Assembly: GCA_021613535.1 (NCBI GenBank)
Contig: CP075492.1
Location: forward strand, 14,183,769-14,247,768
Origin: Adineta vaga
Lineage: Eukaryota; Animalia; Rotifera
DNA length: 64,000 nucleotides
Direction of reading: 5' to 3'
Part shown: positions 8,264-43,975 of the stretch, one piece after another
Layout of the letters: every line of letters begins with the position of its first letter
Numbering within the stretch: the stretch's first letter is position 1
The notes under the pieces: generated by a model
The model's input: only the letters and a program-made list of their open reading frames with translations
The model's database searches: none
Told to the model about the DNA's origin: nothing
Translations under genes and position numbers: made by a program

Positions 8264-8335
8264 AGGGGACACCCGGAATCGAACCGGGAATCGGTCGATC
8301 TGCAGTCGAATGCTCTACCATTAAGCCATGTCCCC
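8264..8335 (-). tRNA. tRNA-Cys (anticodon GCA)
   Basis: Cloverleaf folded by hand from the reverse complement (GGGGACATGGCTTAATGGTAGAGCATTCGACTGCAGATCGA...). 7-bp acceptor stem, anticodon loop CTGCAGA, T-arm CCCGG/TTCGATT/CCGGG. A T-rich tract follows on the coding strand as a Pol III terminator. Confidence 0.85.
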
Positions 8336-8786: not shown

Positions 8787-9888
8787 ATGCTTTGGATAAT
8801 AATTGTTTTATTATCCTTCTCTTGCATTCATTCAGCTATTATTGGCAAAATTGAGAATTATATTCTTAGTAATGTAGTGACTCAATCTTTATTAAACCAA
8901 ACACGTGATCAATGTCTTTGTCAAATGATGAACTTCAATACACTAATATCCGCTATCAACTATTTTTCACAAAATCAAACTTGTCAATTATTTTCTTCAA
9001 ATAATAATTCAATTACTATTCAATATCAAATGAATTCCACTCTCATATTTATCAATCAATCAACCATCTCAATTCAAATAAACAGTAACTCTATCAGTAG
9101 TAGTTATGAGAAATAAAGTATCGAATGAAACGATTGTTTATTCCATTTTCAGAAGTGTTAACTTTGATAAGCAGTTCAACGTAAGACTTGATTTGATACG
9201 CATAAAAATTGATAGAAGTGTGATGTATAATTTAGTTCATCAAGTACGACAAGTAGTACAACAACTGCTACTACGACAGGTAAATTAAATATATTTCATA
9301 CGTAAATGAGCATCTCATTAACATAACTTCTCAGTGAAAACAGCTAAGGTATAGAACAGGTGTCCTTTTTTTATTCTGTAATACTATATTGTGTAACTTA
9401 ACATGTATAATCGATTGTAATACAAATATTCAAACTAAAAGACAGTTATGAGAAAACATTTATGGTAAAATCATCTAGTTACCATGTTTCTTTTCTTGTT
9501 TTCAGCTGTGCCATCAACAATTTGCATCAGTATCGACACTAAAAATCTCTACAATAATGATTTCATCTATTCACCGACATCACAAATCTATGCAGCTGGT
9601 TTGTTAAACAATCAATTCGGTATCTATAGAGCATATGGATATGGAAATGTTACTACAAGTATAATATGAACAGCAGGTCAATGTCCATCGAATACCGATT
9701 GTTATTTGGCGTTAAAAGACGATGGTAGCATAGTTCTTTATAGAACAGGTGATTCAAAAGTTATGTGGGTGGGACGTGGTTATAACAGCAATGTTGATCG
9801 TCCATTCTGCTTGCAAATGTTAGATTCTGGTACTCTAATATGGGTTAATAGTGCTTCGAAAATATTGTGGACATCAAATCCCAGTTAG
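8787..9888 (+). pseudogene. PAN/apple-like + bulb-type (B-) lectin gene, copy A. It is disrupted by an in-frame TGA at 9667-9669 (TGG in the paralog), and the exon 1/2 junction is unresolved
   Basis: Exon 1 (8787..~9113) has a signal peptide plus a Cys-containing PAN-like segment. A Thr-rich micro-segment ends at the donor 9279|GTAAAT (phase 1). The lectin exon starts at 9506 after the acceptor TTTTCAG (phase 1, G+CT=Ala). ORFs 9484-9669 and 9706-9888 share one frame and are separated only by TGA. The paralog at 13159 reads 'atatggaaa' where this copy reads 'atatgaaca'. Confidence 0.5.
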
Positions 9889-11875: not shown

Positions 11876-13400
11876 ATGACTCAAAGAAGAATTCTTTTTT
11901 TATTTATCTTTATTCTTATCAAACAATCAATTTTACAAGATATGAATTCATTTCGAATGTCTCTTTTGTATAATTCTCAATTTCAATGTAGTAATACAAC
12001 TTGTTTTCCATTTCATACGAAAATTGTATCAAAAATTCGTATGTGTCAAATTGAATGTTTACAGCAGAAACAATGTAAAGCAGCGAGTTTTGATCGAACA
12101 ACTTTTCATTGTCAATTGTTTGCTAATTTATTCAATGAAAATAGTACGATGTTAAATGACAACAACATTGATAGTATGTTTCTTATATCTCAAACAAGAT
12201 CTCCACCTGGTATGTATTAATATGTTTAAAAAATGATCTTTGAATATACATTAGACAAAAGAGTGCATAAGATTTCGATTCGGACAATTGTTTTGAAATG
12301 TATATAAAAACTAATTCGATATATTAAAAATAATCAGCGCGAGATTATTATAACCATTCTTAGTTTGTTACCATCTCATAGACTTTAACTCATTTCTTTC
12401 TTTGTTATCTTATACGCAGCAACTATTTTAAAGTATTGTTTATGTAAACTATTATTTTCCTCTGTGTTCTATGTACGCAAGTTTTATTTTCTAGTTATAA
12501 AATCTTTTCATCTTTTTTCCCTAAAATTTTTCATAGGAGAAAAGGAAACTTTGATATAAACAGAACGAACAGTTCATATATGACCAATAACGATATAACT
12601 ATTGATAAGAATCATTCTATGAAAATGAAAAGTGTAATCGAGTTTGTAATTTATTGTAATAAATATTGTACCATATAGCTTACATAAAAGCAATACTGTA
12701 TGACACAATTATACATGGATAGAAGTTCGATTCTAAGATAAAAATCAACATTTTTTCTTGAAATAGACCAGAAGAATAATTCAGAATATTTTTATTTTAA
12801 AGATCTATTGGATTAGAAGTGTTATACATTTTAAATTACTTATCTACGATTCAAAACTGAAGTTGTATCTTTAGTTTACTACAAAATATATTAATTAAAT
12901 TGTTTTTAAGTCAATATGCAGTAGATGTGTAAATGATTTAAACTTAGTATATTTCTTCGATTTTCTTATAAAAAGCGTGTCTAATTATCATATCTCTTTT
13001 AGCTCCATCACTATCGAGTATTTGTGTGTGGAATACACTCGATGCATCTCTTTATAATAACCAGTTTATCTATTCACCAACATCACAAATCTATGCCGCT
13101 GGTATGTTAAATAATCAATTTGGTATCTATAAAGCATATGGATACGGAAATGTTACTACACAAACAATATGGAAAGCACCTCAAAGTTCAACGGCAAATG
13201 AGTGTTATTTTTCGCTTCAAGTTGATCGTAATTTAGTTGTTTATACAGTAGTATCAAAAAGTGTAATGTGGACAGCTGCTGTTTACAATAGCGGTGAAGG
13301 AAAGCCATTCTGCTTGCAAATGTTCGATTCTGGAAATCTAGTATTGATTGATAATACTACTACTATTTTTTGGCAAACAAATACTGCAACAATTGGATAG
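11876..13400 (+). CDS. PAN/apple-like + bulb-type (B-) mannose-binding-type lectin, copy B; join(11876..12209,13003..13400) with a 793-nt intron
   Basis: Exon 1 has a signal peptide plus a 6-Cys PAN-like domain (CSNTTC...CQIEC...CKAASFD...CQLF). Donor CCTG|GTATGT at 12210 is phase 1. Acceptor TCTTTTAG| at 13002. Exon 2 has the B-lectin motif 'QVDRNLVVY' and 'CLQMFDSGNLVL'. The splice gives G+CT=Ala, matching copy A. Confidence 0.6.
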
Positions 13401-13685: not shown

Positions 13686-13757
13686 AAGGGACACCCGGAC
13701 TTGAACCGGGAACCTCTCGATTTGCAGTCGATTGCCGTACCATTGAGCCATGTCCCC
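13686..13757 (-). tRNA. tRNA-Cys (anticodon GCA), second copy
   Basis: Reverse complement GGGGACATGGCTCAATGGTACGGCAATCGACTGCAAATCGAGAGGTTCCCGGTTCAAGTCCGGGTGTCCCT. Anticodon loop CTGCAAA. Followed by T7 (plus-strand A7 at 13681-13687). Confidence 0.85.
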
Positions 13758-13821
13758 TGGTATAATTAATCGGTCTTTAATGAGCGGCAAATGTAGCTTT
13801 CATTTTACAAATTTGTAATAT

Positions 13822-14220
13822 CTATGATTTGATTCGAGATGGCATTACTTTCAGCATAAACAATTGACTTTTGTTCAATTTCTCATTTTTTTTGCTGTAT
13901 AACATCAGTACAATGACATCAGAATGAATACCAAGAACTGGGACCTCTGTTCTCAACCATTTTACAAGTTCAAAGTCGATGCTTTTATCCACAACAATGA
14001 CACCATGTGCTTTGTTTAGAAAAGAAAAAAATGTCGATGCGTCACACTTGTATCGTACAGAAAGAAAGAAATAACGCACGTGCGTGCTTAAAAATACTTT
14101 TCGTTCGATTCGTCTTGTTGACTTATGTATAGTCAGTATTTCTTTGCCGTGAAAAATATCACACAGGCCATCCGTTAAATCTTTATAAAGATTCGAATAA
14201 CTTGATATTGAAATGAACAA
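13822..14220 (-). CDS. Hypothetical ORF (132 aa), no recognised domain; possibly part of a larger spliced gene
   Basis: Open reading frame only; contains '...KAHGVIVVDKSIDFELVKWLRTEVPVLGIHSDV'. Confidence 0.2.
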   Translation of the reverse strand: MFISISSYSNLYKDLTDGLCDIFHGKEILTIHKSTRRIERKVFLSTHVRYFFLSVRYKCDASTFFSFLNKAHGVIVVDKSIDFELVKWLRTEVPVLGIHSDVIVLMLYSKKNEKLNKSQLFMLKVMPSRIKS

Positions 14221-14413
14221 GTATGAATATAGATGTCATTAGAAATTATAGTATGTTGAGAATAATGTTTTTCTTATCGTTTATTAGTCGAGAAAGATAA
14301 ACGAAAATGCGCAGAGCCTTTCTATATTACAGATATCGTTGAAATGATACACATTGAAAAATTTGGTTGTTTTTTTTTGCATTTAGATTATTTCATCTGG
14401 AATATACATTTCA

Positions 14414-15424
14414 ATGTCATCCGATATTGGAATATTACGTACACCTGATTCATCATTTCTCAATCTATTAGATTATTCTTTTCAACCGAATTATATTGAA
14501 TTATCTAATCCGGGTTCGATTGGTAATGGTAAAACAAAATTACGTTTACATTATTTAGATGAAGGAAATAAAAATAGTCCGGAAACAATACTATTATTAC
14601 ATGGTGAACCCAGTTGGAGTTATTTATATCGTCATTTTATACCATCATTGAAACAATATCGAGTTATTGCAGTTGATTTGATCGGATTTGGAAAATCGGA
14701 TAAACCAGTGAATAAAACTGATTATACATATCAAAGACACGTTAACTGGATACGAGAATTTATTGAAAAACTGAATTTAAACAACATAACATTATTTTGT
14801 CAGGTAAAATGTTCTATAGAGAAAGAAATGTGGTAATTGAAAATATTTAATATGTAGGATTGGGGTTCTTTGATTGGTCTACAATTAGTTGGTACACAGG
14901 AAATAGGTGATCGTTTTGCACGAGTAGCTGTTGCTAATGGTGGATTACCTACGGGTGATGGAAAGATTTCTAAAGGTTTTACTCAATGGCTTAATTTTGC
15001 ATCACAACAAACAGAAATGGATGTTGGTAATGTTATTAAACTTGGAGTTGTCCGAGATATGAAAGAGGAAGAAATGGATGCATATAATGCTCCTTTTCCA
15101 AATGAAAAATATCAAGCTGGTGCTTTAGTATTTCCATTATTAGTACCAATCACTCCTGACAATCCATCGTCGGAATATAATCGTCAAGCTTGGCAAAATT
15201 TGAAGAATTTCAATCGACCATTTCTTACTCTTTTTTCTGATTCTGATCCGATTACAGCAGGTCTTGATAAAATCTTACAATCCATGGTGCCAGGTGCTAG
15301 AAATCAAGCACATACAACGATTACTCAAGGTGGACATTTCTTACAAGAAGATAAACCATATGAAATCGTTGAAAATCTAATTAAATTCATTAAAGCTAAT
15401 CCTTTGATATCTGCACGATTATAG
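14414..15424 (+). CDS. Haloalkane dehalogenase, HLD-I / DhlA-type (alpha/beta hydrolase); join(14414..14803,14858..15424), 318 aa
   Basis: Aligns along its length with Xanthobacter DhlA. 'LHGEPSWSYLYR' matches DhlA 'LHGEPTWSYLYR'. Nucleophile elbow 'FCQDWGS' matches 'VVQDWGG'. Second halide-binding Trp is in 'FTQWLNF'. 'AYNAPFPNEKYQAG' matches 'AYAAPFPDTSYQAG'. Catalytic His is in 'GGHFLQED'. A 54-nt intron (GTAAAAT...TGTAG, phase 0) sits between Q and D of the nucleophile elbow. Confidence 0.85.
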
Positions 15425-15723
15425 TTCTAAAAATACTTTAATAAATACAAAACATATTTTCTATGTTTTAATTGACTCTACATCTTATGTAACTAACAGG
15501 ACAGGTTATCATCACAAGTAAGTTTTATTTATCACGACAAATATTGTCCTTGATCTTATAATAGAAGGAAAGTTGTTACGTGATATCATTCCTTTTTTGA
15601 AAGGTATTTGCTCTCCATAAAAAGAAAAAGAACAGGTGAAATTTGTTCTCTTATGTAACACAGCCACAATATCAGTATATATACTCATAGATTTTAAAGA
15701 GAAGACATATTCTTGAAACAAAA

Positions 15724-17834
15724 ATGAGCAGCCAAATTTCACCAACGGATATCGAAAATGGTTCAGTATTGACACAATCCACGGGTAGCAATGATGGACA
15801 TAGTCATGGTTCTGTCATAAGTTTTCATTCGATTAATTATACTCTTCCTCTGCCAAAATTTTGTAATTGTATTCCAATACCATGTTTAAAGAAAAAGCAA
15901 CAACAAATTCTGTTTGATATATCAGGTGTTTTTAAACCTGGTATGAATGCTATCCTTGGACCAACAGGAAGTGGTAAATCTTCATTATTGGATATCCTTG
16001 CTGATAGAAAAGATCGTGAAGGTCTCGAAGGTCAAGTACTCATGGATGGACAAGTGCAAACAGTAGATTTTAAATATCGTGTTGGTTATGTTGTTCAAGA
16101 TGATATTATTAGTGGAAATTTAACTGTTAGAGAAAATTTACTTTTCTCAGCTAATACTCGATTATCTGGAAAAGTTTCATCAAGAGATAAACTAACAATA
16201 GTTAATGAAGTTATCGAACAATTAGGTTTAGAAAAATGTGCTGATAGAAAGGTTGGCACTGAATTAAAGCGAGGAATTTCAGGTGGTGAACGAAGACGAA
16301 CGAATATTGGTATGGAATTAGTTCTGTCTCCTCGAGTACTTTTCTTAGACGAACCAACTACAGGTAAATCATATAATATAAATGAAATATTATTCAATCA
16401 TAATTTATGTGTACAGGATTGGATTCATCAACAGCTCGAAATGTAATGAAATACTTGCATCAGTTGTCGAGAAAAGGCCGTATGTTTTTCTATTATATAC
16501 TAATTTTAGTATGATCTACTTTTTAATGAGATGTAGGTACTATCATCTTTTCAATTCATCAACCACGTTATTCAATTTTTAAATTATTTGATACTCTTTT
16601 TCTCGTCGCTGCTGGCCGTTGTATTTATCAGGGACCAAGTAAAGTTGTTCTTTCGTATTTCGAATCCATTGGATTTCAATGTGAAGAACATAATAATCCT
16701 GCGGATTTTCTTCTGGATGTTTCTCAAGGTGATTACCTTCCCACATCTCCATCATTCAATGTTCTTGATGAAAACGATTCAGATCAACAACAAGATCAAG
16801 TTGTCAATTACCTCCATGGTGCTTACGAAAAATCAACATTGTTTACTATGATTAAACAAGAGGTAACTGATTTAAGTTCTTCGTTAAATCGTATAAGTCC
16901 AACAATGCATGAAACAACTAAATTACCAAAAAAATCTCGTTTATCCGAAACATTCTATGTTGCACAGCGAACACTTCGAAATGCTTTTCGTAATCCAGCA
17001 TTGATCGGTATGCAAACTGGTGTATCGATCTTTTTAGGTATACTTATCGGTTTGATTTACATTCGAATGGATCATTCGATAGATACAGGTGTAAAGAATC
17101 GTCTTGGTGCAATCTTTTTCATTGTTACAAATCAAGTATTTGGTAGTCTTTCAGCACTTGATCTTTTCATTAAAGAACGTCCTTTATTTCAACATGAAAA
17201 TGTCAGTGGTTATTATCATGTTTCAACCTATTTCATCGCAAAAATTCTCTGTGATATCATTCCATTACGAACTATTCCATCGATTTTGTTCTCATCGATT
17301 GCATATTTTATGATTGGATTTCAACGAACAGCAGCAAAATTCTTTATTTTCTTCTTTGGAATCTACATTACATCACTTTGTGCTTCATCATTTTGTTTTT
17401 TTGTATCGGCAAGTGTACGAGTCTACGGTAAGAAAATACTTTTATTAAAATTCACGCTCATTCGTTTATTTATCATTGTTGTAGCTATTGCAAATTTACT
17501 CGCTGCAATGTATTGTGTTTTAACATTGATATTCAGTGGATTCCTTGTAGAAGTTACATCCGTTACAGCCTTTCTTTCATGGATTAAATGGATAAGTATT
17601 TTTCGATATTCAAATAATTTATTTGCTATTAATGAATTTACAAATTTGAAACTTTGTTTACCAAATGATACAAATACATGTGAAATCGATGGATTAGAAA
17701 TCTTAAAACAACAAAATATTGATGCATCATCCGATTGGGATCTATGGAAGAATTTTGTTGCATTAGGTGGTATTATGTTATGTTTTCTTACACTAGCTTA
17801 TATTCAACTATTTCGAATGAAAAAAACCAAATAA
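15724..17834 (+). CDS. ABC transporter G-family half-transporter (ABCG2/White-like); join(15724..16363,16417..16479,16537..17427,17485..17834), about 647 aa
   Basis: Walker A 'GPTGSGKSS', signature 'ISGGERRR', Walker B 'LFLDEPTTGLDS' (split by a 53-nt intron), 'GRTIIFSIHQPR' (split by a 57-nt intron), and a C-terminal 6-TM domain '...LIFSGFLV...' (57-nt intron). All four splice phases were checked by hand. Confidence 0.8.
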
Positions 17835-17949
17835 ATTTATTTATTTTTTGAATCGATTATTTATAAATAAAGATAAAAATTAGTTGAAGACAGAAAAGTT
17901 AAATGGAAACTTTTTCATAGTAAAGTGATCGATTATATATACTGATGGA

Positions 17950-18740
17950 TTACTACTAAATTGTTTTGTGAAATCATTCAGCCGATGAAAATAACGTTCT
18001 GCAACTCGAAAACTTAGGCACCGTAGATTTGAGAGATAACTTTTCACGAATGTAATATTCTCCTAGTGTATATGGCATATTTGATAAGTCAAGACGTTGC
18101 AGACGAGTTATTCTTTGTAATACATTTGTGCTTAGAATGATATTACTAGGCGAATTGATCTCGATGCTGAGATATATGAGATTAGGCATCGATTGTAAAA
18201 AAAAACATCAGAGCATACCAATCACAGTACATACCTGTAACAGTGGATAGTGTAAAAACGACTTCGTGCCATTTAGGAAACAATACTTATTTGTTCAGTT
18301 TAAACGATATAGATTCTCGATTTGAATATCAGCCAATGATAGAAGACCATTTTGTATATGATATCAAGGAATCCGTCAAGCCACTACAGTGTAAATAAAG
18401 TGAACGAAGTTGTTTGAAGAAGAAGATGTTAATTTGACCAGGTGCGGCACGTTCAGAAAATGTTAACCGTGTTATTATGTGTTGACAATTGGGAAGATGT
18501 TGAATACAAAGACGAAAATCATTTAATCAACAAGCAATAAAGTTAAAATAAAGTTGTTGACTTTGATAGACGAATGCATCAAAACGTTTGTTTAGTCGCC
18601 GATGAAGAAAAGCAAGGAGGAAATCGATCCCATCGATATAGTTCTCGAAAAGATCGAGTCAGATTTCATTAGGAAGCGATTCAAACTTTGAAAGTATGAC
18701 ATCTGTTATGTTTCTGGTGTATTGTCACATGTTGTAGATA
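17950..18740. repeat. Dispersed repeat, copy 1 (about 93-95% identical to 25690..26800). It lacks about 365 bp present in copy 2
   Basis: Direct comparison of the two segments ('gtgaaatcattcagccgatgaaaataacgttctgcaactcgaaaac...' and '...catcgattgtaaaaaaacatcagagcataccaatcacagtacatacctgtaacagtgg...'). Confidence 0.7.
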
Positions 18741-19491
18741 TCTTAGAGAATGTAATTCGTATGTTTATTGCTTTTTTTCTCTGTAGTTAAGTAAGCTAAT
18801 ATATATTTATATCAGTATATCATATGAAAATAAAAATGACAATGACTGATTGTATAAATCATTCTCAAGACATTTTCAACATTAGTTTTCGTTGTTTGTC
18901 ACAGATTTTCTCACGATACAACGTTCCAAATCATATCGTAATGCGCCGCCAGACTGCAGCTGTTCTGTAGAAAAGGTTTCATGATGAGGGTGTGAGTGGG
19001 TGTGGGTGATGTGGTAGTCAGTGATTCGATTATAGTTTAAGACTTTTCAACTATCCAATAGTCGTTCGGCTTTAAAAACTAATTTCCTCTCTTTAAATCA
19101 CAAGCTGAGTCACATTTCAAGTTAAACTTGTATGTAATGGTTACAAACTCCACCAATTTTATTAATTAACACCGCTAAATACATATCATATTCTCTTTAT
19201 CATTTTAAGGACTGATAAGCATGAATATAAAAAGACACACTTAGAGATATAGTTGAAGGTACGCAATTTCATACTAAAGAAGTCGGTATTTGAGTTTATT
19301 CATTTTCGATTAAAAATCAAATACAAAATAAAAACGTTTTCTTTTCAATATATTTATGTTATAAAAGATTGATTGAATCGAATAATCAATGCTGCCGAAC
19401 GTTCTCGAACTTCAATTGTACAACGTTCAATAAGTAAAAATAATTCTCTACGAAACATTCGCGATGTTAATGAATAAACAATAAATGATAT

Positions 19492-20507
19492 CTACAAACA
19501 AAAATTACTTTTACTTAATTTTATAGCAAAATCTCTTACAGCTGCATTGATATATTGTAAGAGAGTACACATTTGATAGATATAATTTTCGATAAATATT
19601 CGAAATGAAGATTTTCGTTCATATTGTGTTAAACCATTATAACACAAATAAATTGTAATAGGTAATGTTAATATAATTGTAACGAATAATTGTATGAGTA
19701 GCATTCGAAAAAGAATCCATTCTTCTCTTTTTCTTCTTTGAAAACTATGTATTATATTCACATGAATTCGATTACGAACGGATTTTATATTTCGAAGTGT
19801 TAAGAAACCGAATAGAATCATGAAGAATGGTATTGATAAACCGTTGATGAATATTGAATAAAAACTCAAAAATGTTGAATACGAACCAGGTTGATTCGAA
19901 CAAATACGTTCAGTAGAATTTGATGAGACTTGAATATCATAAAAGATTATATTATGAATACATATGATCATCCAAAATACACAATTGATGAATATCATTT
20001 TCCATGTTACAGGACGACGTAAAAACCAGTGTTGATTTGTTTTACTCATCAAATATCTATAAATACATGTTTTATTTCAATGATCGATCTGTACTGAAAA
20101 AAAAAAAGAAACGAAAAATCTTCATACCTATCAATAGTAGCTAATACCATATACGATCGAGGTAACATTAATAGAAAACCAACAGCAAAGAATCGTAATT
20201 TACAAAACCATGACCATTGTGCTGATGGATCAAAATTAAAACCAATTTGAAGAAGTCTTAATAGAGATACGGTATTTAGATAAAGTCCGTAACCAATTGA
20301 TGCAAATATTAAATAAAGTGAGCAAGCACTTGAACGAAGTTTAGTGCTACGAGAAAAAACGATGACATTTAAAATTGAACCCAAATTACCAATTAAAATT
20401 ATTAGAGGAATGGAAATAAGAAACAGAGTTTTTTGAAAGTTGATCAAGTCATCTCTACTCCACATTGTTAAGTAAATGATAGAAAAAAACACAAGGATCG
20501 TCTTCAT
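19492..20507 (-). CDS. Rhodopsin-like (class A) 7TM receptor; complement(join(19492..20056,20128..20507)), about 314 aa
   Basis: TM1-3 with 'LATIDRY' (E/DRY) at the exon boundary. A 71-nt intron (GTATGA...TATTTATAG, phase 2) gives AG+A=Arg of DRY. Exon 2 has TM4-7. Confidence 0.65.
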
Positions 20508-20950
20508 TTAATATACTCAACTTACGTGAAGCATCCAGAGAAGTCTATGAAATACTAAACGATTTTAATTATAAGATATCGAATGGTTCAAAGACGTAAT
20601 TATGGACACGAGCTTCTGTTACCTTAAGATGTAAATGAAATCTTTGAGTTCTGTTTTATGAAAAAAGAGCGTTTTGGGAATTCCTAAATCATCATCTTCA
20701 TACCACGATACGAGATACCTTTTGACGAGTCTGACAATTCAAACTTATTGAAAACTAGATCACTATATAAAACGGTGTTTTCAAAGTGTAACGACGAATT
20801 AAATGTATAGGATTTTGTTTTTCGAATGCATTTTCGCCGGAAATCAAATAGAATGGATTTTATCATTATAAACTGTGAGAATAAATGGCACTGTAGATAT
20901 ATTTCACCTTATAATAAAAGATCTTGCATCGTTTATTCCCACTAGTCAAA

Positions 20951-21463
20951 CTAGGTTACAATTCTCACAAAAGTCATCTTCCTGATAGGTGTCCTATTAT
21001 ACAGAATGTACTTTTGTTTCTGGCGATTTCGGTAGAAAAAAGAAGCAATATTGGAAGGGCGTGGAATAGATACTGTCTGGTTGATGCGTAAATTATGACT
21101 AACTGGTGCGTTAGAAGGAATCGTATCATCATATATTTGACCAACACTGTTGTTGACCATTTGAAATGGATCAAAACCATGTTCCTTCAAAAGTGATTCC
21201 ATCATTGCTGCAGGAACTGTAATTCGTAGTTAGTATATAATTCTTGATCAAGTATTACTTCAGTATAGCGTCTTTCATGACATTCTCTTTAAACCACGAA
21301 AGGCATAAGTGAATGTAGTACAATTAGAACATAATGCATGTACTGGTGTTGACCATGATATAAGATCTCGATCAAGAAGACATCCTACTGCAAGATACAA
21401 TGAGAGGTGATGTGTGTCCTTGTCGATGAAATCCAGCTGCTCATTAACCGATAATTTCACCAT
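20951..21463 (-). CDS. Hypothetical protein, probable 2 exons (weak GTTTAA donor); no recognised domain
   Basis: Two minus-strand ORFs can be joined in phase 1 across an approximately 71-nt interval ending in TTACAG. Confidence 0.25.
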
Positions 21464-23382
21464 TTTTCAGTGTTAAGCCAGGCATATGAAATTGTAAATG
21501 TATACGTTCCAAAACAGTGTTCAGATTGTTCCTAAATATTTCTTTTTAACAGCAAATGAAAAATACTGGCATATATATATTACTATGGTTCATAATAAAG
21601 TCACATTTCATATATTTCATACTTTCTATTGATCAACTAGACGTAGAGAGTGAACTGGTACATGTACTGATACTGCTGAAAGCGTACTGCGTAGTCAAAC
21701 ATTTTGAAGTAAAAAGTTTTTACGCAAATATCGCACATATTCATTGAAATGAATGAAACATTTTATTCATAATTGTCTTGGGATATAACTATATCATATA
21801 CTAATCTATAAGCATCATTATTGAAAAGATTTCTAATATGGTTTCAAAAGAGAGAAATATGCTGAAAAATCTTTTGTTATAACTATAGAAAATGAACAGA
21901 TATACACGTGGAAATATTGCGAAAAGAAGGCTTCGATCAAGCTCTCACTATCATCCACAATTTATTTGAAATTTACTTATCAAACATAATAAAAGCTGTG
22001 AAATTTACAATACAAAGAGAAAGAAAAATGGAAAAATAATTATTTTATTGTCCGATTTTCGATAAAGAATACACGAAATCCATTTGTTACTTGTGTGTAA
22101 ATGATGGATTTTGTTGAGGATTGATGTTTATTGTGACTTTCTCATCTTGTGTTACCGAACAAGGTGGATAATTTATAGAAGAAATTGTTGTTCGAATTAT
22201 ATTTAAAACCGATAATTTCGATTTTGATTGGCGTGGTAATGCATTTGGATTGTGTGACAATGATTGTTTTTCAGTTGAAGACAATGTATTCGATATTTCT
22301 GATTGATAGTCGGATGGAAAATACCAACTAACAAACATTTCTTCGAACGTTACGTTTAATCTAAAAGACATAAAACATATTTTAATAGCCATATTTATTC
22401 GTAAGAGAAAGGAAACAAATAATCATCGTAAAAAAAAGTACATGTATAATACTTCAATAAGACATATATATACATATACATCGCCTTTTGCGTCTCTCCC
22501 ACTTGGAATGTGATATGAAAGGGAGTATAGACAAGAAACGAAATAGAATAAGGACGTGAGAGGAGGAGCAAACCATAAATACGTGAAATATTATAATCAA
22601 TGCCTACGATAATAGTGTATTCATTTGTTAGTTTACATTGCTGAATAGTTAATAAATCAGCAAATATGATTAGAATATTTACGTGATAAAACAAACGAAA
22701 TTTATGAGAATGTGTGTACGTCTAAGAAACTAAAATAGAAAAATATTGACATAAAAATCAAATCTTTAAACAGATGAAAATGTTTGTTGTAACTTAGAAA
22801 CAATAATTTATCACACGACAACATATGTATATAAAATGATTATATTAACTCGACAAAATTTTTTGGAGAAAATGTACAAAGAAAATATCAGATTTTAATG
22901 TGACATTACGTCACCTTAGAAACAGGGTAAAGTGCTTCTGTTGAGAAAAGAAAAAAAGTAGATATCTTTTGATTTTTCGCTGCTTTATTTTAATATTCAA
23001 AAACATATTTTTCTCGATTAAAATTAGTCATAGAATATCATACAACTTCAGCAGCAAGACTGGTCTTAAAATCAACGAACGTTTCGATAGAATGCCTTCT
23101 ATATATTCCAATATTATAAAAACAGCTGCAATATTAAATTTTTTCGTTCTATCATCAGATCATTATCGTTATTGTTTATCGTACTTTTCTTAATGTTCGT
23201 TATCGATATCATGAGTACAATGATCATTTTGAATCTTGAGGGTGCGTGAGTGAAGGTCTGAGTGTGATGATGATGAGGATGGATAGAGACACTGACTTGC
23301 ACTCATTTACATCCACCATTTTTTGTATGAGCATTTATTTACAAACATATATAAAACAACATCCAAACCAGTTTTCGTTCAA

Positions 23383-24349
23383 TTAACTAATTGTTTTCAG
23401 TGGGCAAACTGTTTGTCTATTAGATATGGGAATTGGTACTACTTGATTTATTCTTCCCGTTCCTCTTGTATTTATTGGTCGCCCAGTTAATTTAGCAAAA
23501 AGAATTTCTTTCACTTGTTTGTTTGTAACGAACAGAAATATTGAATGAACTGCAGCAGTAAACGGAAATGATAAAACTTGAATTGAATAGAATGGCCATG
23601 GTGCGTAATTAATACGATTCATTATTAAACAAAACAGATATGAAATACCAGCAATGCCGTAGAGATTAAACGTAAAAATAATATTTTGAAAAATCCTTTT
23701 GTTCCTTCGAGCTTTTAATGTACTTTGACTGTTTGGATTGATACGAGTTTGATAAATTGTATAACGAAGAACAATTCCGTACAGAATCATTAGTATTAAC
23801 AGTGATACCAATGCAAAAAGAACACTAACTGAAATTGCTGTTGGAAAATGGTGTGCTGTTAACATACAATAAAGAGATTCTGGATCATATTGATAAGCAT
23901 AGGGTGATATGAACATTCCAACTGCAATGATAACATTGATTAACCAACTGATGATGATTATCATCCACGTTGTACGAAAAGTTAAAAGAGATTTACGTTG
24001 ATAAAGAACTGATGAAAAAGCGAGTTATTGCTTGAACTATACACGAATGTGCCACTACTCCAGTACTCAATATTGTTAAACAAGCACTAATTTGACAAAA
24101 TAGTGCACTCGATGGTAACCCATCGAAATAAATTTGTTGAATAACTGAAGGTGTTTGAATGGAATAAGTGATTGCACAGAAAAATAATGCAAAACATGAA
24201 TTACATATCAGAAGATTAACAATAGATCGACAATGAGAATGCCAGTAACGAAGAATGACAAATAATACAGTTGATGTACATAATATAATTATAAACCAAA
24301 ATATTAGAAACAGAACATTCATTATTTCATGAAAACGTTTATTTTCCAT
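23383..24349 (-). CDS. Rhodopsin-like 7TM receptor, paralog of 19492..20507; complement(join(23383..23947,23997..24349)), about 305 aa
   Basis: Seven hydrophobic segments, with 'CIVQAITRFF' at the TM3 end. A 49-nt intron (GTAAAT...CATCAG, phase 2) is at the same relative position as in the paralog. Exon 2 is exactly 565 nt in both genes. Confidence 0.6.
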
Positions 24350-37202: not shown

Positions 37203-38157
37203 ATGAATTCATCAACACCAGTACATCAAATACCAAACATTATCATTGATTGTTCAATTATCACAGGCTCTTCAATTACTATTTGCGTTTCACTTGCAAT
37301 ATTTCAATTGATTTGCTATGATTTAATCAAACAGAAAACTTCTTTAGATCGAGTTGCACTTCTTCTAACAGCAAATGTTTATTTATCATTATTCTTCTTC
37401 TCCGCATTAGTTCTTGAACAGTTTATACGTGCATATCTAGGACATCGCTATTTGATGTATCATTAAGTGATGGAATCTATTGTCAATTTCGTTCTTATCT
37501 TCCATGGGTGTCCATTTGTGGAATCATGTACTCGAATACTTTGCAAGGAATCTATCGTTTATGTCGAATTGTTTTTCATACTAAACAAATGCTTCAATCA
37601 TTTCACTTCTACATGAAAATGATCGTTATTCAATGGATTCTATGTTTCACAATTCTCATTCCTTCATTTTTTCTTGATGGTTTTAAATATTCAGTGAATA
37701 ATTATTATTGTGAAAATGATTATAGAAATATTCGAAGTACAGTTTTTAATGGTACTCTCTCTTCTACCATTCCGATAACTCTAGCGAGTATGTGTTAGTT
37801 TATACATGGAGAAAAATGCATCGAAGAGATAATCATTTATTACAAACAATGACACGAATTCAAGAGATGAACGCACGACGTGATTTAGTTGTACTGTTTC
37901 GAATTTGTATTATTCATGGATTCTTATCCATATTCTTTACACCTTCTTCAGTATTACTTTTCATTTATATTGGCACTGGGTATGAACCTTGGTGGTCACC
38001 ACAATTTCAATGGTTATTTTTGTGTCTGTCAACTACCTGTATTAGTGTTACACTATTATTTATATCACCTCATGTTCAAAATTTATTGAAAAAAAGATTT
38101 CATCGACGTCGTCATCAAACATCTGTACATATTCATATGAGAGTTACTTGTCCGTAG
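37203..38157 (+). CDS. 7TM receptor-like gene spread over three frames (37203-37466, 37508-37798, 37792-38157); introns or frameshifts unresolved
   Basis: Hydrophobic TM segments throughout, 'AYLGHRYLMYH' near the TM3 end, and a basic C-terminus. The exact exon junctions could not be fixed by hand. Confidence 0.35.
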
Positions 38158-38497
38158 AGAATACTGAACTGATTATTTGTAATAATATATTCTCTCATTC
38201 ACATTTTCAAGAGTATCAATTTTGTTGTGAAATTAGAAAATGATGATAGACGAACAGTATGTTTATCACAGTGAGAAAAAAAAGTACTAAAATACCTAGT
38301 GATTACACAACAAACCTATTGGCTGATTTTTATATACTATGAATTTGATGAATCGAGTAGATCGATAAGTTTTCTTTCTCTCATCTTTTGACTCGTACAC
38401 TCGAAAGTGTTTACATACTGATGTCATATAGATGAGAAAAACAAAAATAATTAGATGATAGTATTCATAATTATAGAAGCGTAAGTGATAGTTTGGA

Positions 38498-40646
38498 TTA
38501 CCATTGATAAAATTGCTTGTTATTCTTCGTATCATCACTATTACAACCTGATAACCATTTCGAAGGTTTCGTAATATTTACAAATCCAAGTTTGGCTGCT
38601 GGACTATTCCATTTCACTGTGAAAAAATTACATTGATTTGTATCACCTGAAAACAATGGATCATCTATAATACTTCCATTGTCTTGACCTGTCTTTTGCC
38701 AATCAATAAATGATAGCTGTTGTGGACCGAATAGTAATTTAGTACCATACGGATTGAAATAGATATTATTATTCAATACTGCTCTAACGTTTGGATCAGA
38801 TTTATAAGCTGAATGATTTGTTCCTTGAAATGTATCATAAACAATATTACGTGTGTATGTCCATGATGTATGATTTTCTGCTAATTGAATACGAACATCA
38901 CCATCGGGAAAAGGGTCACCTGGTTGTGATGGTTGAATCAGTGATGCACGAGCAAAAACATTATTTACAATCGTATTATTTGCACCATAATGTTGAAATA
39001 AAGAACTCCAACCTGTATTGTATACAACATTATTTGAAACAAGTATATTTGATGCACCATCATCAAGATAAATTCCCCACATATATGTTGCATAACTATA
39101 CACGTTTTTAATAACATTCCCATGGATAACTGTACCTGATTGAATACCGATCGTATAAATACCACCTTGATCACAAAGTATATGTTGACCAATTGTATAA
39201 ATATAATTTTCTAAAATGAAAATTTTTGTTGTTAATGATTCCGTATAACCATTTTGTGAACCAACAGATATACCATTATATCGATGATGATGAATACTAT
39301 TATCTGCAATAATGATATCATATGCACGAAAAACTAATACTCCTACACCACTGGGAAAAACATTTCCTCCATAACTAATTTCATTGGAAATGATCTTATT
39401 TGAATTTGCTAATATTGATGCTGGTGTTAGCCAATCACCAATCCAAACACCACCAGCACCTGTATCATTGACTAATGAATTCATAAAAATAATATTCGAT
39501 GTCCCTTCTCTTAATCGCAATCCATATGATCCTGTATGACTAATTTCAACATTAGATATAGTGATTGATGTTGCATTGGCAATAAAAAATGCAACCGATG
39601 TAAGAAATGAGGCTGATGCTGAATTGGCTTGTTCAGTACGACCGATATTCCATGCACCATGTTGTATAGCAATATTATCAATAATAATATCTCGAATGGG
39701 ATCTGTTGTACAGTTGCTAGCTAAGGAAACAACAATTTCTTGAACTGATGTAATGATTTGTGCTTGTGTTGGATCATAGGTACCATCTGTCATCAAGTAG
39801 ATCGTTTTCGTTTCATTGACAAAACAGAATGAATTTGGAATAAGTGCTTCACAAAGATTTTCAATATGAAATCGTCGTTGAGCTTGAGTTGGAAATTCGC
39901 CAATAGGATATTGAGAAGGATTAGTAAAGAAAATAGTATTATTCGACGGTATGAGTCGATCAATATAATGATGGGATTCTGTCCAACTATGATAAATAAC
40001 TACCATTGCATCTGTTAATGATGTATAATTGAATTGTCCAGGTGCATATTGAAAACCATATCGTGATTGAATGGAATCATTTAAAGGTGCAACATATTGC
40101 AAATATTCGGAAAAATTAGTTGGAATACGTGTACGAACAATTCGTTGATTATTTACGAATAATTGATTAACGAAGGATATTGATGAAGCAATTGCACTAT
40201 AAATATTGCCGCTAACATGTATCCAACCAGTCACAGGTACTCCACCACTAATCACTGCCGTCTTTGAACGTTGATAGGAACTTTTATGCCGCGATCGATC
40301 CATCAAACAAGGTAGTCTCTGCTTCATTCATTGTTGTTAAACGTATATGACTATGCGCTTGTGTGATGTGCGTAGTGTTAACAAAATGATAGGTTGGATA
40401 TAAATGAATGGTTATTCTGATTGATGATATCATATTATTACGATTATACCGATGTTCAATATGTTGAAGTGCTTGGTGTAATGATGAGTAAGGAAATGCA
40501 AGTGATCCATCACTATCTTTATTAAAATTTAGAAATGGAACAACGTACAAATCGTTCGATAAAGTCGATGAAAGAGCTGACGTTTGATATAATTCACTAA
40601 TAATTAAAATTAATGTCACTAAAATTTGATCTTTCGTAATTTTCAT
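38498..40646 (-). CDS. Secreted right-handed parallel beta-helix (PbH1 repeat, pectin-lyase fold) protein, bacterial-like; about 2 exons (40300..40646 signal peptide/N-terminus; 38498..~40280)
   Basis: 609-aa ORF with repeated beta-helix rungs ('NVVYNTGWSSLFQHYGANNTIVNNVF', 'GNVIKNVYSY', 'ISNVEISHTGSYGLRL'). The upstream ORF 40284-40646 begins with signal peptide 'MKITKDQILVTLILIISELYQTSA'. The junction near 40284-40330 is probably the acceptor TTCAAAG|ACGGCAGTG (giving 'TAVISGG'), but no canonical GT donor sits in phase. Confidence 0.6.
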
Positions 40647-40873
40647 TGTATTTCAAAATTCTATAAAGATTCAAACGTTCTTTTTAAAATTTCTATTTAC
40701 TAACAGCACACATGTTGTTCGAAGGTAAAGATGCATACACTTATCTCTCTGTTATCTATACAAAGTTCTTTTTTTTGATCAAGTTGAAATCAGCAACATG
40801 CATCTTCTATTTACATCCAGCATTAGATAGTTTTTTTACTGTCTATGCATTAATTTTGAAATAAAATGAAATT

Positions 40874-41750
40874 TTAATAAGAGTCTATTGAATTTTGTAT
40901 TAATTTGAAGAGAAAAATGATTAATTTAAGAAATAATAAGAAAAAATTATCTTTTCTAAAGTTTCTAACACATCTTTGACATTTCACTTCGTCCACCACA
41001 TCCATTGAGGAAGACTCACACCATAGGTACCTAGAAAAAAGGTTAATAGAATTCAAATAGAATCGAAATGGATAAAAGTTCTTACATTTTTTACATTCAC
41101 CGCAATGCCATTCTCGCCAACCGACACATTCTTGACATACAATGCAATGCCATTTACAATTATCTTGTTCAAAATCTTCTCGACAGAATGAATAATAATA
41201 GCTCGAAAGCTTATTTGATAGAAGCATACGAAATAATTTTTGCATATGATTGAGTTTTTCGTCATCGTCAATATCGTTCCATTCTTCCACCCATTCTCCA
41301 AGTTCATGATCAAATTCACAAGCATCTGAATAACTAAAACGATACATATATTTGATTAGATTTCTTGATAAAGAATAGATTATATATTTACCAGGCGGCT
41401 TGCATGATACGTTCTCGTAATTGATTTCGATCTATTTGTTTCAATGCATCAGCATTTTTAACATTTTCCACAAGCCAACTGGAAAAACAAGGATGAGCTG
41501 AATATTTCTTTTCATTACCAAAGAAATATTCCAAATTATTGAACATATTTTGACAAGATGATTGACATCCACATGATGAATTACATCCACTACCAAATTT
41601 GAAACAAGCACAAGTTCGTTTGGTACATCCTTTGGAGCAATTACATTTATCTTTCTTTTCATAATTTGGATTTTTTTCCGTAATTTGACCACTTTTTGGA
41701 CCTTGATTTTGTTGTTCATCGGCACTATCAGAATAATCGTCGATCCACAT
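40874..41750 (-). CDS. CXC (tesmin/TSO1-like) cysteine-rich domain protein with a C-terminal Cys/His zinc-finger-like region; complement(join(40874..41333,41392..41750)), about 272 aa
   Basis: '[32 protein letters not shown]' matches the CXC pattern. A 58-nt intron (TG|GTAAAT...CGTTTTAG, phase 2) gives TG+T=Cys. C-terminal '[18 protein letters not shown]'. Confidence 0.6.
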
Positions 41751-42047
41751 GGTTGATATTTTTCAAATAAACGAGACGATCGATCGATTTTACTATATCT
41801 TTTTCTTTCACGGCGGTCGACAAAGATCTTACATATGGTTATCATATATTAAACATGAAATTTTATAAGAAAAGAATAAATGTTTTCAAATTACATTATT
41901 AAAATAGAGAATTATTTAAAATAATGAATTTCTTTCGATTTTCCAAAAAAAAAGATGTCGCTGAAAAATGGTTTACTTTCCGCATTCTTTTATGTTTTAT
42001 TGAAATCTAGTCAATGAAACGATATAATTCAATTGAGAAAAATGTGT

Positions 42048-43396
42048 TTATAATGATCGTAACCATGTTTGTAAAATCATTAGAGCAATTCTTGTTGGTA
42101 TTGGTAATGATTCTTCTAATAATACTAATGAAATTCTTTCTAAAATATTCGGTATACATTGTGGTAATGTTTTCAATGCTTGAATCAATCCATCGGCAGT
42201 GAATAGATCTTTGCCAACAATAGAAGCGATCGTAATCCAATCGAATACTGGCAATTCACAAACTCCACCTTTTACGTAGCATCTGGGATGAGAATTGAAT
42301 GCAATTTTTTGTAAAATAGAACAATTCTTTTCACAGTTTTCCAAGGGAGATACGAGAGATTTTTGCAAACAATTCATCGTCTTCCCTATCCATCGTTGTC
42401 CTCGTGGACTAAATGTTTTTAAATTATGAGTAAATTTCATACAATATTTCATTCCATAACCTAATGCATATCCATTTGCACCACATGAAACTTTCTCTTC
42501 CATACAATCAGAATAAAATGCACAACTATGCATAGGTGGATTTATACATGACTGACGACACATGGGATCAGATGGACATTTTGTACAATCTTTGTTACAT
42601 TCATCACATGTTGGTTGGTTGACAATCATAGTTTCTGTTCTACTACTATCGGGTAAGAGAATAAGATCAATCGGAGATATTGAAGGTATCATCCCAACTA
42701 CATCTATTTGATGCTGCTTCGTACGAACAAAAATAGAGATTGGCAACGTTGGTACATTTTTGAAAATAACTATGCCATGATTATTCGTTGTACCAATGTG
42801 TCCTACATGAGGATTCTCTGTTAAATTCAGATTGACTATAACATTACTAGCAACAGTTCCATTGTTGAATAATACACGAATTGGTATCATGATCAATCCA
42901 AAATATAAATGAAATGACGTAAATATTGGTACATTATATATATCCAAAGCATATACACTAAGAACTGTAGATGTATCGAATTTTTCTCTTACAATTATAG
43001 AATCTTTTGTATGAGATGTATTCATTATTGGCTGTCCATTAGCAAATATTGCGTAATTATTGATATTGAATATTGGAAATGACGCCATTATTCTTACATC
43101 TGTATTTCCATTGTTAAATGAAAATTCATCGACATTGATTAGATTAACTTCTACCTTTGACAGTTTCTGGTTGGAAAGTTTTGAGGCAAATCTTTTTGCA
43201 GCGCGAGTAACTATAAAATAAAAATAAAATCATTATGACAATAAATGATATATTGTATAAATCATACATACATTCTGATGAATCAGCTAAATAGATTGAA
43301 ATGAGACTGATAGTAAGAACTATTTTAAAAAACTTTCTAAAAACAAATAAGATATTTACGAATATTATATTCGAAATTTTACTTTTGTTGTTCCAT
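42048..43396 (-). CDS. Secreted Cys-rich protein of unknown function; complement(join(42048..43210,43272..43336,43383..43396)), about 413 aa, with a 14-nt first exon
   Basis: ATGGAACAACAAAA|GTAAAAT (14-nt exon), then a 46-nt intron. The 65-nt exon 2 encodes signal peptide 'KFFKIVLTISLISIYLADSSE'. A 61-nt intron (GTATGT...TTTTATAG) follows, then the long exon. All phases check. C-terminal 'CDECNKDCTKCPSDPMCRQSC'. Confidence 0.45.
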
Positions 43397-43872
43397 TAGT
43401 TTGCACCACACCCCTCAACTTTTTCGTTTGTTTCTATAAATGTAAACGAGACTATATTGTAGAATATTTCTTTATATTTTTCAATGTAAGAACAATTGTT
43501 TACGTCATCATTATGTAAAGTAGATATGATATCATTTTTTCGAACAGAATTCGTCGACTAAACTTTAATCTATGAAAATACTTCATCATAAGTGTATATG
43601 CAATTTTTCTATCGGAGATATTTTTATACGAATCAACAAATATGTTCCGTAATGACGCACAAAGATGAAAATATGATTAAAATCTTTTTCAAATATTATA
43701 ATAATAAAATTGAACGACATTCATATGATAGATGCCACAGTTTGATTAGCATGAAATTTTCCAAGTAATTGTTTTACAGTCAATCGTATTTCATTTGAGA
43801 TGTACATACAGAGTTCAGATGATATGAAATAAACGAAAACAATTGACTACTAATCGTTCGATCGCTGCTCGG

Positions 43873-43975
43873 AGATCACTTTTTTGCATCCTGAGGGTGT
43901 GGGTGAAGGTGCGGATTGGGTTTGGGGTGAGGAGGACTAGCTAATCGTCTACACCCACACCCACACCCTCAAGAT
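43873..43975. repeat. Telomere-like G-rich inverted repeat. 'GAGGGTGTGGGTG' (43893-43905) pairs with 'CACCCACACCCTC' (43958-43970); it contains (TGTGGG)2-3
   Basis: A perfect 13-bp inverted repeat separated by a G-rich spacer of about 52 bp. Related motifs occur at 18986-19014, 23235-23282, 25217-25262, 31801-31830 and 32126-32186. Confidence 0.6.

Follow-up and report, generated by a model that had tools for sequence, protein, structure and literature searches.

Facing telomere-like tracts in Adineta vaga, a rotifer of the bdelloid group, are copies of an abundant family of short non-coding elements and possible scars of rejoined chromosome breaks

Chromosome breaks are frequent in desiccation-tolerant bdelloid rotifers, which survive massive breakage, and how these animals protect and rejoin broken chromosome ends is the question touched by a set of G-rich tracts in Adineta vaga. 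The stretch of DNA analyzed here (hereafter the window) comprises 64,000 nucleotides of A. vaga DNA, an identity borne out by a 100% protein match, with a background GC content of ~30%. An original prediction had picked out six intergenic sites in it as possible remnants of telomeric repeats, left by the healing of chromosome ends or the capture of retroelements, or else as the termini of a family of small hairpin elements. All six tracts are found where they had been placed, and the unit invoked, TGTGGG, is the telomeric repeat of A. vaga itself (PMC7943196, PMC8494291). We show herein that these sites belong to a family of short non-coding elements that is abundant in bdelloids. As a whole, the original idea is partly supported.

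In the window, GAGGGTGTG was matched 12 times with up to one mismatch against 2.66 expected, a count reached in none of 100 shuffles, and TGTGGGTGTGGG was matched 11 times with up to two mismatches against 0.73 expected; G-rich motifs were 5-15 times commoner than in shuffles. Three sites have a reverse-complement partner, as had been claimed, and the decayed element at 23235-23318 has a weak one besides (Table 1). The ends first assigned to two of the three (25217-25262 and 32126-32186) fall a few bases short. At the best-preserved element, the 13-bp inverted repeat of GAGGGTGTGGGTG (43893-43905) with CACCCACACCCTC (43958-43970) is exact and extends to 24 nt with 88% complementarity, its right arm holding ~3 CCCACA units. 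The weakest of the six sites, 31801-31830 (GGGCGTGAGTGATGGTGGG, which lacks CTTGAG), is doubtful as a family member, and a seventh copy at 43404-43424 had been missed. The description of the sites as intergenic is uncertain for 32126-32186, where the element overlaps a possible F-box-like open reading frame (ORF) on the minus strand.

Table 1. Copies in the window and two copies inside A. steineri genes (a slash separates the outer motif from the repeat arm)
Type	Composition	Position	Strand	Paired arms	Remark
Lone G-rich arm	gaTGAG/GGTGTGAGTGGGTGTGGGTGATGTGG	18986..19015	+		C-rich partner absent
Decayed element	G arm ATCTTGAG/GGTGCGTGAGTGAAGG..., then weak C/A-rich partner CACTCATTTACATCCACCA	23233..23318	+		
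Paired, decayed element	TTTGAG/AGTGTGAGTATGTG, 21-nt T/C-rich spacer, CATATCCACACT/CTCAATGG	25214..25272	+	25215-25233 and 25255-25272	
Weak lone G-rich tract	GGGCGTGAGTGATGGTGGGAGTCTCACAC	31801..31836	+		Junction motif absent; doubtful member
Paired element	TATGAG/GGTGTGGATGTGAGTAGG, spacer, CACCCTCACCAACATC/CTCAAGATGG	32124..32201	+	32125-32147 and 32160-32201	
Extra lone copy	TTGAGGGGTGTGGTG	43404..43424	-		7 nt upstream of stanniocalcin-like gene ATG (43395)
Best-preserved paired element	ATCCTGAG/GGTGTGGGTGAAGG..., spacer, CACCCACACCCACACC/CTCAAGAT	43888..43975	+	43890-43932 and 43949-43975	
Possible lone C-rich arm	AACCACACTCACACCC	50565..50580	+		
Intragenic copy, 82 nt		L004 12506-12587			A. 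steineri
Intragenic copy, 45 nt		L007 15431-15472	-		A. steineri

That the tracts are telomere-like and that the motif recurs elsewhere had also been proposed, and the same structures do recur widely in other bdelloid loci. They share a common plan, (ATC)TTGAG/GGTGTGGG..., an unrelated spacer and ...CCCACACC/CTCAAG(ATGG), within a total of 45-300 bp. A spacer of about 10-30 nt, and up to 70 nt, is present in every paired element. Within ~160 kb from Adineta and Rotaria, neighboring opposite arms separated by at most 150 nt had the G-rich arm first 14 times and the C-rich arm first never. Arms are of unequal length, from 12 to about 220 nt, and their preservation varies from perfect telomere repeats, with runs of 2.5-4 units at 43949-43966 in the window and at L001 5045-5066 and L004 12566-12588, to heavily decayed ones. 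Degenerate tracts of ~165-220 nt occur at L007 9045-9205 and L001 5077-5290, and such long, unequal arms look like decayed telomeric arrays; (ACACCC)n and (TCACCC)n variants are present within arms. The two arms of an element are independent of each other, since the alignment score of an arm with its own partner was 19.7 and with the arms of other elements 19.3 (permutation p = 0.31), and their decay was uncorrelated (rho = -0.02). In an all-against-all comparison only the arms matched, the spacers being unrelated apart from one pair, and spacers matched their own flanks no better than shuffles did.

The junction between flank and repeat has a pattern of its own. Some 20 of ~36 real arms end outwardly in ATCTTGAGG...CCTCAAGAT, while about 15 arms lack CTTGAG and have AG alone in common. 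Immediately before the repeats, A stands at position -2 in 48 of 82 cases and G at position -1 in 50 of 82, and AG is no part of TGTGGG. The outer motif is recurrent over lengths up to ACCATCTTGAG, and occurs in discrete variants (ATCTTGAG, ATTGAG and CTAGAG) with no smooth truncation series.

One suggestion of the original prediction, that the tracts cap truncated retroelements, was rejected. Retroelement caps would be direct repeats, whereas the tracts here stand head-to-head (14:0). The ORFs adjoining the sites belong, by Pfam and synteny, to 7TM receptors and to F-box-like, galaxin-like, ankyrin, CXC and stanniocalcin-like genes; in Pfam only 7tm_1, galaxin, ankyrin and CXC were matched, so that neither a reverse transcriptase nor a transposase domain, and no co-occurrence with reverse-transcriptase ORFs, was found among them. 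A hammerhead ribozyme was likewise not found, and matches to Rfam were to tRNAs only.

The part of the original prediction that fits best is end healing, in which the conserved non-telomeric junction motif needs explaining. We favor, at a probability of about 0.37, the reading that each element is a repair scar, formed where telomerase or a related reverse transcriptase added sequence to the two ends of an internal break, which were then rejoined. After an internal chromosome break, telomerase, or a related Athena-type reverse transcriptase, would extend both 3' ends, with the first copying round beginning 3' of the RNA template, at a distance of a few nucleotides; the product would be GGTGTG repeats preceded by (ATC)TTGAG or by AG alone. 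The outer AG or CTTGAG would then be a copy of RNA next to the template, and CCCUCAAGAU would be expected beside the template of A. vaga telomerase RNA or Athena 3' terminal repeats. Two very short, non-protective new telomeres might next be joined with some filler DNA, which would leave, on either strand, flank, AG, (GGTGTG)n, spacer, (CACACC)n, CT and flank. Such a scar would decay neutrally in non-coding DNA, and inside a gene would persist only if spliced out.

Several observations argue for such a scar, although the break, the enzyme and the origin of the junction motif are what we infer. The arms consist of A. vaga's own telomere unit, and two chromosome ends facing each other must give exactly the G-then-C order. 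Unrelated spacers, independent arms of unequal length, the AG junction and the lack of transposon or retroelement signs also count in its favor, as do varied placement (copies are found inside genes and in intergenic DNA between tandem, divergent or convergent genes) and a lineage-specific density, with one element in ~2.5 kb of A. steineri DNA and one in ~10 kb of the A. vaga window. Elements are nearly absent from a syntenic stretch of A. ricciae and present in Rotaria; by extrapolation, bdelloid genomes would hold roughly ten thousand copies or more. There are precedents for the proposed steps. Telomerase has inserted interstitial repeats at breaks in rodents, the few preceding nucleotides being copied from beside the template, and twin priming from both ends would place template-side nucleotides at the break site (PMC2246262). 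In A. vaga, telomeric repeats occur at breakpoints, and a 2026 study proposed transient neotelomeres "leaving only scars" (PMC13564844). Against a scar stand the uncorrelated decay of the arms, although a single event predicts equal age for both, which was thus rejected, and the constant presence of spacers that are not templated from the flanks; filler of the kind made in polymerase-theta joining was rejected on the same spacer-flank comparison. That no empty orthologous site was found, with A. steineri isolates and the syntenic A. ricciae locus as the comparisons, and that one pair of elements (L001/L004) shares a spacer are further points against it, and a long recurrent outer motif in discrete variants suits a mobile element or a binding site better.

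A mobile element is accordingly the first rival, plausible and rather less probable than the scar. The copies would be tiny non-autonomous, foldback-like DNA elements moved by some enzyme, their terminal inverted repeats starting with ATCTTGAG and carrying variable-length arrays of telomere-like hexamers. Conserved palindromic outer ends, a very high copy number and a fixed G-then-C order, as terminal repeats require, all suit such elements, as does the internal sequence common to L001 9647-9694 and L004 8553-8617. No offset gave a consistent target-site duplication, however, and direct repeats of at least 5 nt were at chance level overall; in three elements, direct repeats of 5-7 nt do lie outside the junction, at a distance of 7-12 nt. 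The hAT-like inverted repeats at 52328-52709 and ~52914-53334 of the window served as a positive control, and these keep perfect 8-bp duplications. A short-read contig breaks exactly at one element (L001 versus L002), a point in favor of mobility, but this difference is a scaffold gap; among A. steineri isolates, 99.5% identical, there was no indel at any element and no presence/absence difference was seen. The elements are missing from the syntenic A. ricciae locus, and its intergenic DNA is not alignable. Also at odds with a foldback element are the otherwise unrelated spacers, arms of such different length, the arms that share only AG, the lack of an ORF-bearing copy in ~160 kb and of a transposase nearby. 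The original prediction of a hairpin element family is partly right: inverted arms and conserved outer ends do define a family, but its arms are not specifically complementary, its spacers are unrelated and it has no consistent target-site duplication.

The surroundings of the copies raise a second rival, namely that the element is a cis-acting promoter, boundary or terminator to which a telomere-repeat-binding protein or one of the KLF/Sp type (CACCC/GT-box) would bind, by analogy with plant telo-boxes and with yeast Rap1/Tbf1 sites in promoters. Copies are nearly always located in non-coding DNA. In the window, the lone arm at 18986..19015 has a 7TM gene (3' end at 19492) on one side and an F-box pseudogene (ATG 18702) on the other, and the best-preserved element lies ~500 nt upstream of one minus-strand gene (stanniocalcin-like) and 236 nt downstream of another (7TM); lone arms have their C-rich strand pointing towards the downstream gene, and a lone copy lies only 7 nt before a start codon. 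The A. vaga stanniocalcin-like gene and three A. steineri paralogues have an element 300-560 nt upstream, and A. ricciae has a 10-mer remnant pair at the matching place. The two elements with common internal sequence, which lie upstream of paralogous stanniocalcin-like genes, share 18 of 18 spacer nucleotides, while the coding DNA is only 67% identical, which points to selection or copying. In addition, CCACACCCT is what we take to be a classical CACCC box, resembling a KLF site. We nonetheless regard a cis-acting role as unlikely. The window has only 6-8 copies for ~35 genes, and at the density of A. steineri an element upstream of a given gene is unsurprising. Copies in convergent intergenic DNA and inside genes do not suit a regulatory site, nor do long degenerate arrays resemble binding sites; the syntenic genes of A. 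ricciae manage without the elements, and a strict G-then-C order with 10-70 nt spacing is hard to derive from protein binding. Two more specific forms were rejected: a bidirectional promoter of divergent genes, since most paired elements lie between tandem genes, and a start codon or core promoter, since the ATG often found at the end of the C arm belongs to the extended motif CTCAAGATGG(T) and ORFs behind the terminal ...CTCAAGATG stop after 3-25 codons.

A hairpin selected as a small RNA precursor or DNA cruciform is very improbable. Some copies do fold better as single strands than shuffles (z from -2.2 to -4.5), including 25214..25272 (z = -4.5) and 43888..43975 (z = -3.6), but several are at shuffle level (z = 0.08 for 23233..23318, and -0.78). 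Complementarity within elements is no higher than between them, and the stems are the generic repeat only, with no Rfam match.

The element is palindromic and therefore offers GT..AG on either strand. Both intragenic A. steineri copies have GT..AG ends, and their removal restores the reading frame, which was the case for these two copies only and for no site of the window. The AAG acceptor of these copies is weak, and the 32124..32201 element, which lies at the edge of a 4-kb stretch missing from the syntenic A. ricciae locus, has no AG after its minus-strand C arm. A bolder proposal, which we hold to be improbable, is that double-sided telomerase capping and rejoining is routine in bdelloids, so that their genomes would carry thousands of palindromic scars whose junctions record the flank of telomerase RNA (predicted 5'-CCCACACCCUCAAGAUGG-3') and whose genic copies could survive as new spliceosomal introns. 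If true, it would provide a break-repair route to intron gain.

If the elements are scars, they would constitute a genome-wide, datable record of past breaks, a direct sequence signature for irradiated lines and a predicted sequence for bdelloid telomerase RNA. If instead the family is mobile or regulatory, it would be an abundant component of bdelloid genomes, and TGTGGG counts that serve as a proxy for "telomeric context" would in part be counts of these elements. No description of such a family was found in the literature searched, and public scans with GGGTGTGGGTGTGGG (metagenomes) and CCACACCCTCAAGAT (viral and prokaryotic genomes) gave almost only unrelated GC-rich or chance matches.

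Introner-like elements are insertions that generate introns, and the two intragenic copies of 45 and 82 nt with GT..AG ends resemble them, whereas most bdelloid copies are intergenic; no report of introners in rotifers was found in the literature searched. Drosophila FB and ciliate TBE1/Tel-1 have inverted arms of short tandem repeats in variable number, conserved outermost ends and a variable center, and TBE1 and Tel-1 bear telomere-type repeats at their termini. Unlike these, bdelloid copies are far smaller and without coding members, their arms are unmatched within a copy, and no target-site duplication is consistent. Human 2q13, the relic of a head-to-head telomere fusion, has the same G-strand-then-C-strand order of two arrays. 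It is, however, a single site, where the arrays are long and the flanks subtelomeric, whereas bdelloid copies are tiny, number thousands and are flanked by unique genic DNA.

In A. vaga itself, telomeric repeats cap 5'-truncated Athena/Terminon retroelements and form neotelomeres (PMC6431247, PMC3846280, PMC13564844). The organism, the repeat, its (ACACCC)n/(TCACCC)n variants and the link to break healing are the same, but neither a retroelement nor a reverse transcriptase ORF nor a hammerhead motif adjoins the present elements, which are head-to-head rather than direct repeats and lie among ordinary genes. The interstitial repeats of primates and rodents described by Nergadze et al. (PMC2246262) differ in being tracts of a single orientation, whereas bdelloid tracts come as facing pairs with a spacer in the middle, the G strand leading; insertion into an empty site was demonstrated in mammals and is proposed for the bdelloid elements. 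The likeness is otherwise close. In both, short tracts of the organism's own hexamer lie internally and mostly in non-coding DNA, exact when new and then decaying, and begin with non-telomeric junction nucleotides, in mammals attributed to RNA beside the template (PMC2246262) and in bdelloids forming a longer motif of up to 8-11 nt.

All six G-rich sites of the original prediction were found where it had placed them. In the window, whose background GC is 30%, GAGGGTGTG had 12 matches with at most one mismatch, compared to 2.66 expected, and none of 100 shuffles reached 12; TGTGGGTGTGGG had 11 matches with at most two mismatches, compared to 0.73 expected. The 13-bp inverted repeat 43893/43958 proved exact, and is 24 nt long at 88% when extended. 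The assignment of the DNA to a bdelloid was right, since the product of a 346-aa ORF (42048-43088) matches an Adineta vaga protein from a 20-Mb contig at 100% identity. TGTGGG, which the original prediction named as the bdelloid telomere repeat, is the telomere unit of A. vaga and is present at all chromosome ends of the assembly (PMC8494291, PMC7943196).

Telomere-like elements, tRNA genes and hAT-like elements in the window
Feature	Position	Strand	Description
tRNA gene	8264-8335	minus	Rfam, 66.8 bits
tRNA gene	13686-13757	minus	Rfam, 58.2 bits
Site 1	18986-19014		lone arm
Site 2	23235-23282		G-rich arm with decayed partner
Site 3	25217-25262		G-rich/C-rich pair
Site 4	31801-31830		lone arm, marginal
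Site 5	32126-32186		G-rich/C-rich pair
Seventh copy	43404-43424	minus	7 nt upstream of start codon
Site 6	43893-43970		G-rich/C-rich pair
hAT-like/MITE-like palindrome	52328-52709 (stretch 52320-52717)		382 bp; perfect 8-bp direct repeat ATAAAGCA
Second hAT-like inverted repeat	~52914-53334 (stretch 52905-53345)		perfect 8-bp direct repeat GAGTCACA

The unit of these elements is 5'-(ATC)TTGAG/GGTGTGGG...-3', a 10-30-nt spacer and 5'-...CCCACACC/CTCAAG(ATGG)-3', where the slash marks the junction between a non-telomeric motif and the repeats of the arm. In all 14 cases in which opposite arms are neighbors within 150 nt of each other, the G-rich arm precedes the C-rich one. Arm lengths are unequal (12 to ~220 nt), and the state of the arms varies between perfect telomere repeats and heavily degenerate tracts. 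An AG precedes the repeats (A in 48/82 at -2 and G in 50/82 at -1, counted in a list with some noise hits); outside it lies CTTG or ATCTTG, with ATTGAG and CTAGAG as variants, and the junction consensus of the best copies extends to ACCATCTTGAG. The sequence AGATGGGAAGAAA(A/C)ACA, which lengthens the CTCAAGATGG junction motif, was seen in the spacer of site 3 (25234-25254, minus strand) and directly 3' of the C arm of site 5 (32197-32216), and may be a further part of the same template or terminus. Folding z-scores of the elements were mixed. Own arms aligned no better (19.7) than arms of other elements (19.3; permutation p = 0.31), and the predicted "hairpins" are two independent telomere-like tracts and not selected stems; a selected hairpin was ruled out by the same comparison.

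No target-site duplication was consistent across the elements. The window also has two genuine inverted-repeat elements that are hAT-like, and these served as a positive control for this test, 8 bp being the hAT-type duplication length. The first has 186-nt arms that are 84% complementary and end in CAAGGGGGAAAAGGCGAAAAG; the second has related ends, AGGGGGAAAAAGYGATACTCC, and many subterminal TACTCCA/TGGAGTA repeats, and GC in the window peaks in its stretch (52905-53345), at 0.36. Spacers are unrelated between elements, except that an 18-nt spacer is common to the elements upstream of two paralogous stanniocalcin-like genes whose coding DNA has an identity of only 67%. A mobile, foldback-like family whose ends are telomere-like would account for this shared spacer and for the conserved ends, but leaves the missing duplications and the unrelated centers unexplained.

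The genes around the sites are ordinary, namely 7TM receptors, F-box-like genes, an aldo-keto reductase, a galaxin-like gene, Mpv17, a beta-helix gene, a CXC protein and a stanniocalcin-like gene. None of them showed a reverse transcriptase or transposase domain, and an Rfam search of the window returned two tRNAs only; the proposal that the motifs cap truncated retroelements lacks support. The two tRNA genes lie 5.4 kb from each other and are 84% identical; their stretch contains another repeat pair (9546-9742 and 13049-13245), 79% identical and 3.5 kb apart, and no single duplicated segment was shown. An F-box-like gene is a recent tandem duplicate (17880-18735 and 25489-26800, minus strand, 92-99% identical, ~8.06 kb apart), with similarity stopping just upstream of the start codon; the copy at 17880-18702 is probably a pseudogene, since it carries an in-frame TGA and a 1-nt indel within the F-box. 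The galaxin-like gene (minus strand, secreted, cysteine-rich; Pfam Galaxin_repeat, E = 2e-13) contains three tandem 78-nt repeats at 30216-30449, 67-82% identical. The 4-kb stretch from the aldo-keto reductase gene to site 5, which holds a 100-nt direct repeat (28425-28524 and 29762-29861, 78% identical), is without counterpart in the syntenic A. ricciae locus.

The stanniocalcin-like locus was compared among A. steineri (several paralogues and isolates), A. ricciae, Rotaria sordida and an environmental bdelloid. Elements occur throughout the A. steineri loci at ~1 per 2.5 kb and are present in Rotaria, and are nearly absent from the 15.8-kb syntenic stretch of A. ricciae. In the latter (L003), an exact TGAGGGTGTG lies immediately 3' of the 7TM gene stop codon (2193-2202), and CAGACCCTCAAGAT lies 345 nt beyond it (2538-2551), at a position matching site 6; together they may be what remains of a pair with a long center. 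Downstream of an element, two A. steineri assemblies (L001 at 9693, L002 at 1801) agree at 100% identity; upstream of it they are unrelated, and one N marks the join. Because the breaks in short-read contigs fall exactly at the repeat, assemblies of bdelloid genomes may be fragmented or mis-joined by these elements.

Elements were located in tandem, divergent and convergent intergenic DNA, and also within genes. In A. vaga and in A. steineri paralogues, one is found 300-560 nt ahead of the start codon of the stanniocalcin-like gene; this is unsurprising given the high density in A. steineri, and such a coincidence has a chance of ~0.17 when the window has 6-8 copies for ~35 intergenic regions. 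A promoter, boundary or terminator element would explain the non-coding placement and the conserved spacer pair, but would not account for arrays that are long and degenerate, for copies in convergent regions or for the lack of elements in A. ricciae. Two of the A. steineri copies inside genes are bordered by GT..AG. When the first (L004, 12506-12587, 82 nt), which contains the branch-point-like motif TACTAAC, is removed, two ORF segments are united in one frame that stays open for 55 codons downstream; without the second, a 45-nt copy (L007, 15431-15472, minus strand) in the gene at 13747-16420, the frame is preserved and a stop codon is lost. These reading frames suggest that copies landing in genes may persist as introns.

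We tentatively regard the elements as repair scars, in which broken ends were capped with telomere repeats and rejoined, with a probability of roughly 0.37. Both ends of a break would be extended with telomere repeats and then rejoined, and two capped ends so joined would necessarily show the G-then-C order. If nucleotides flanking the template were copied as well, the telomerase RNA is predicted to carry 5'-CCCACACCCUCAAGAU(GG)-3'. Repair scars also fit the independent, unequal arms, the unrelated centers, the missing duplications, the decay spectrum and the lineage-specific abundance. Against them, the junction motif is long and occurs in discrete variants, decay of the two arms within an element is uncorrelated, templating of spacers from the flanks was looked for and not seen, and no empty site was found among the loci compared. 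The original prediction is partly supported, in its telomere-derived and end-healing part but not as to retroelement caps.

Interstitial telomeric repeats are already known from bdelloid subtelomeres (PMC2861651, PMC8494291). A limited literature search found no account of such mini-palindromes, head-to-head and with a fixed junction motif, nor of how abundant they are among ordinary genes or of copies inside genes that resemble introns. Repair scars have precedents. In A. vaga itself, deletion breakpoints carry telomeric repeats, and it was proposed that neotelomeres form transiently, "leaving only scars" (PMC13564844). In mammals, telomerase inserted short interstitial telomeric tracts at breaks; in mouse, nucleotides copied from next to the template often stand in front of them, and twin priming from both ends would put such template-side nucleotides at the break site (PMC2246262). 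The bdelloid elements have the layout that such twin priming would give.
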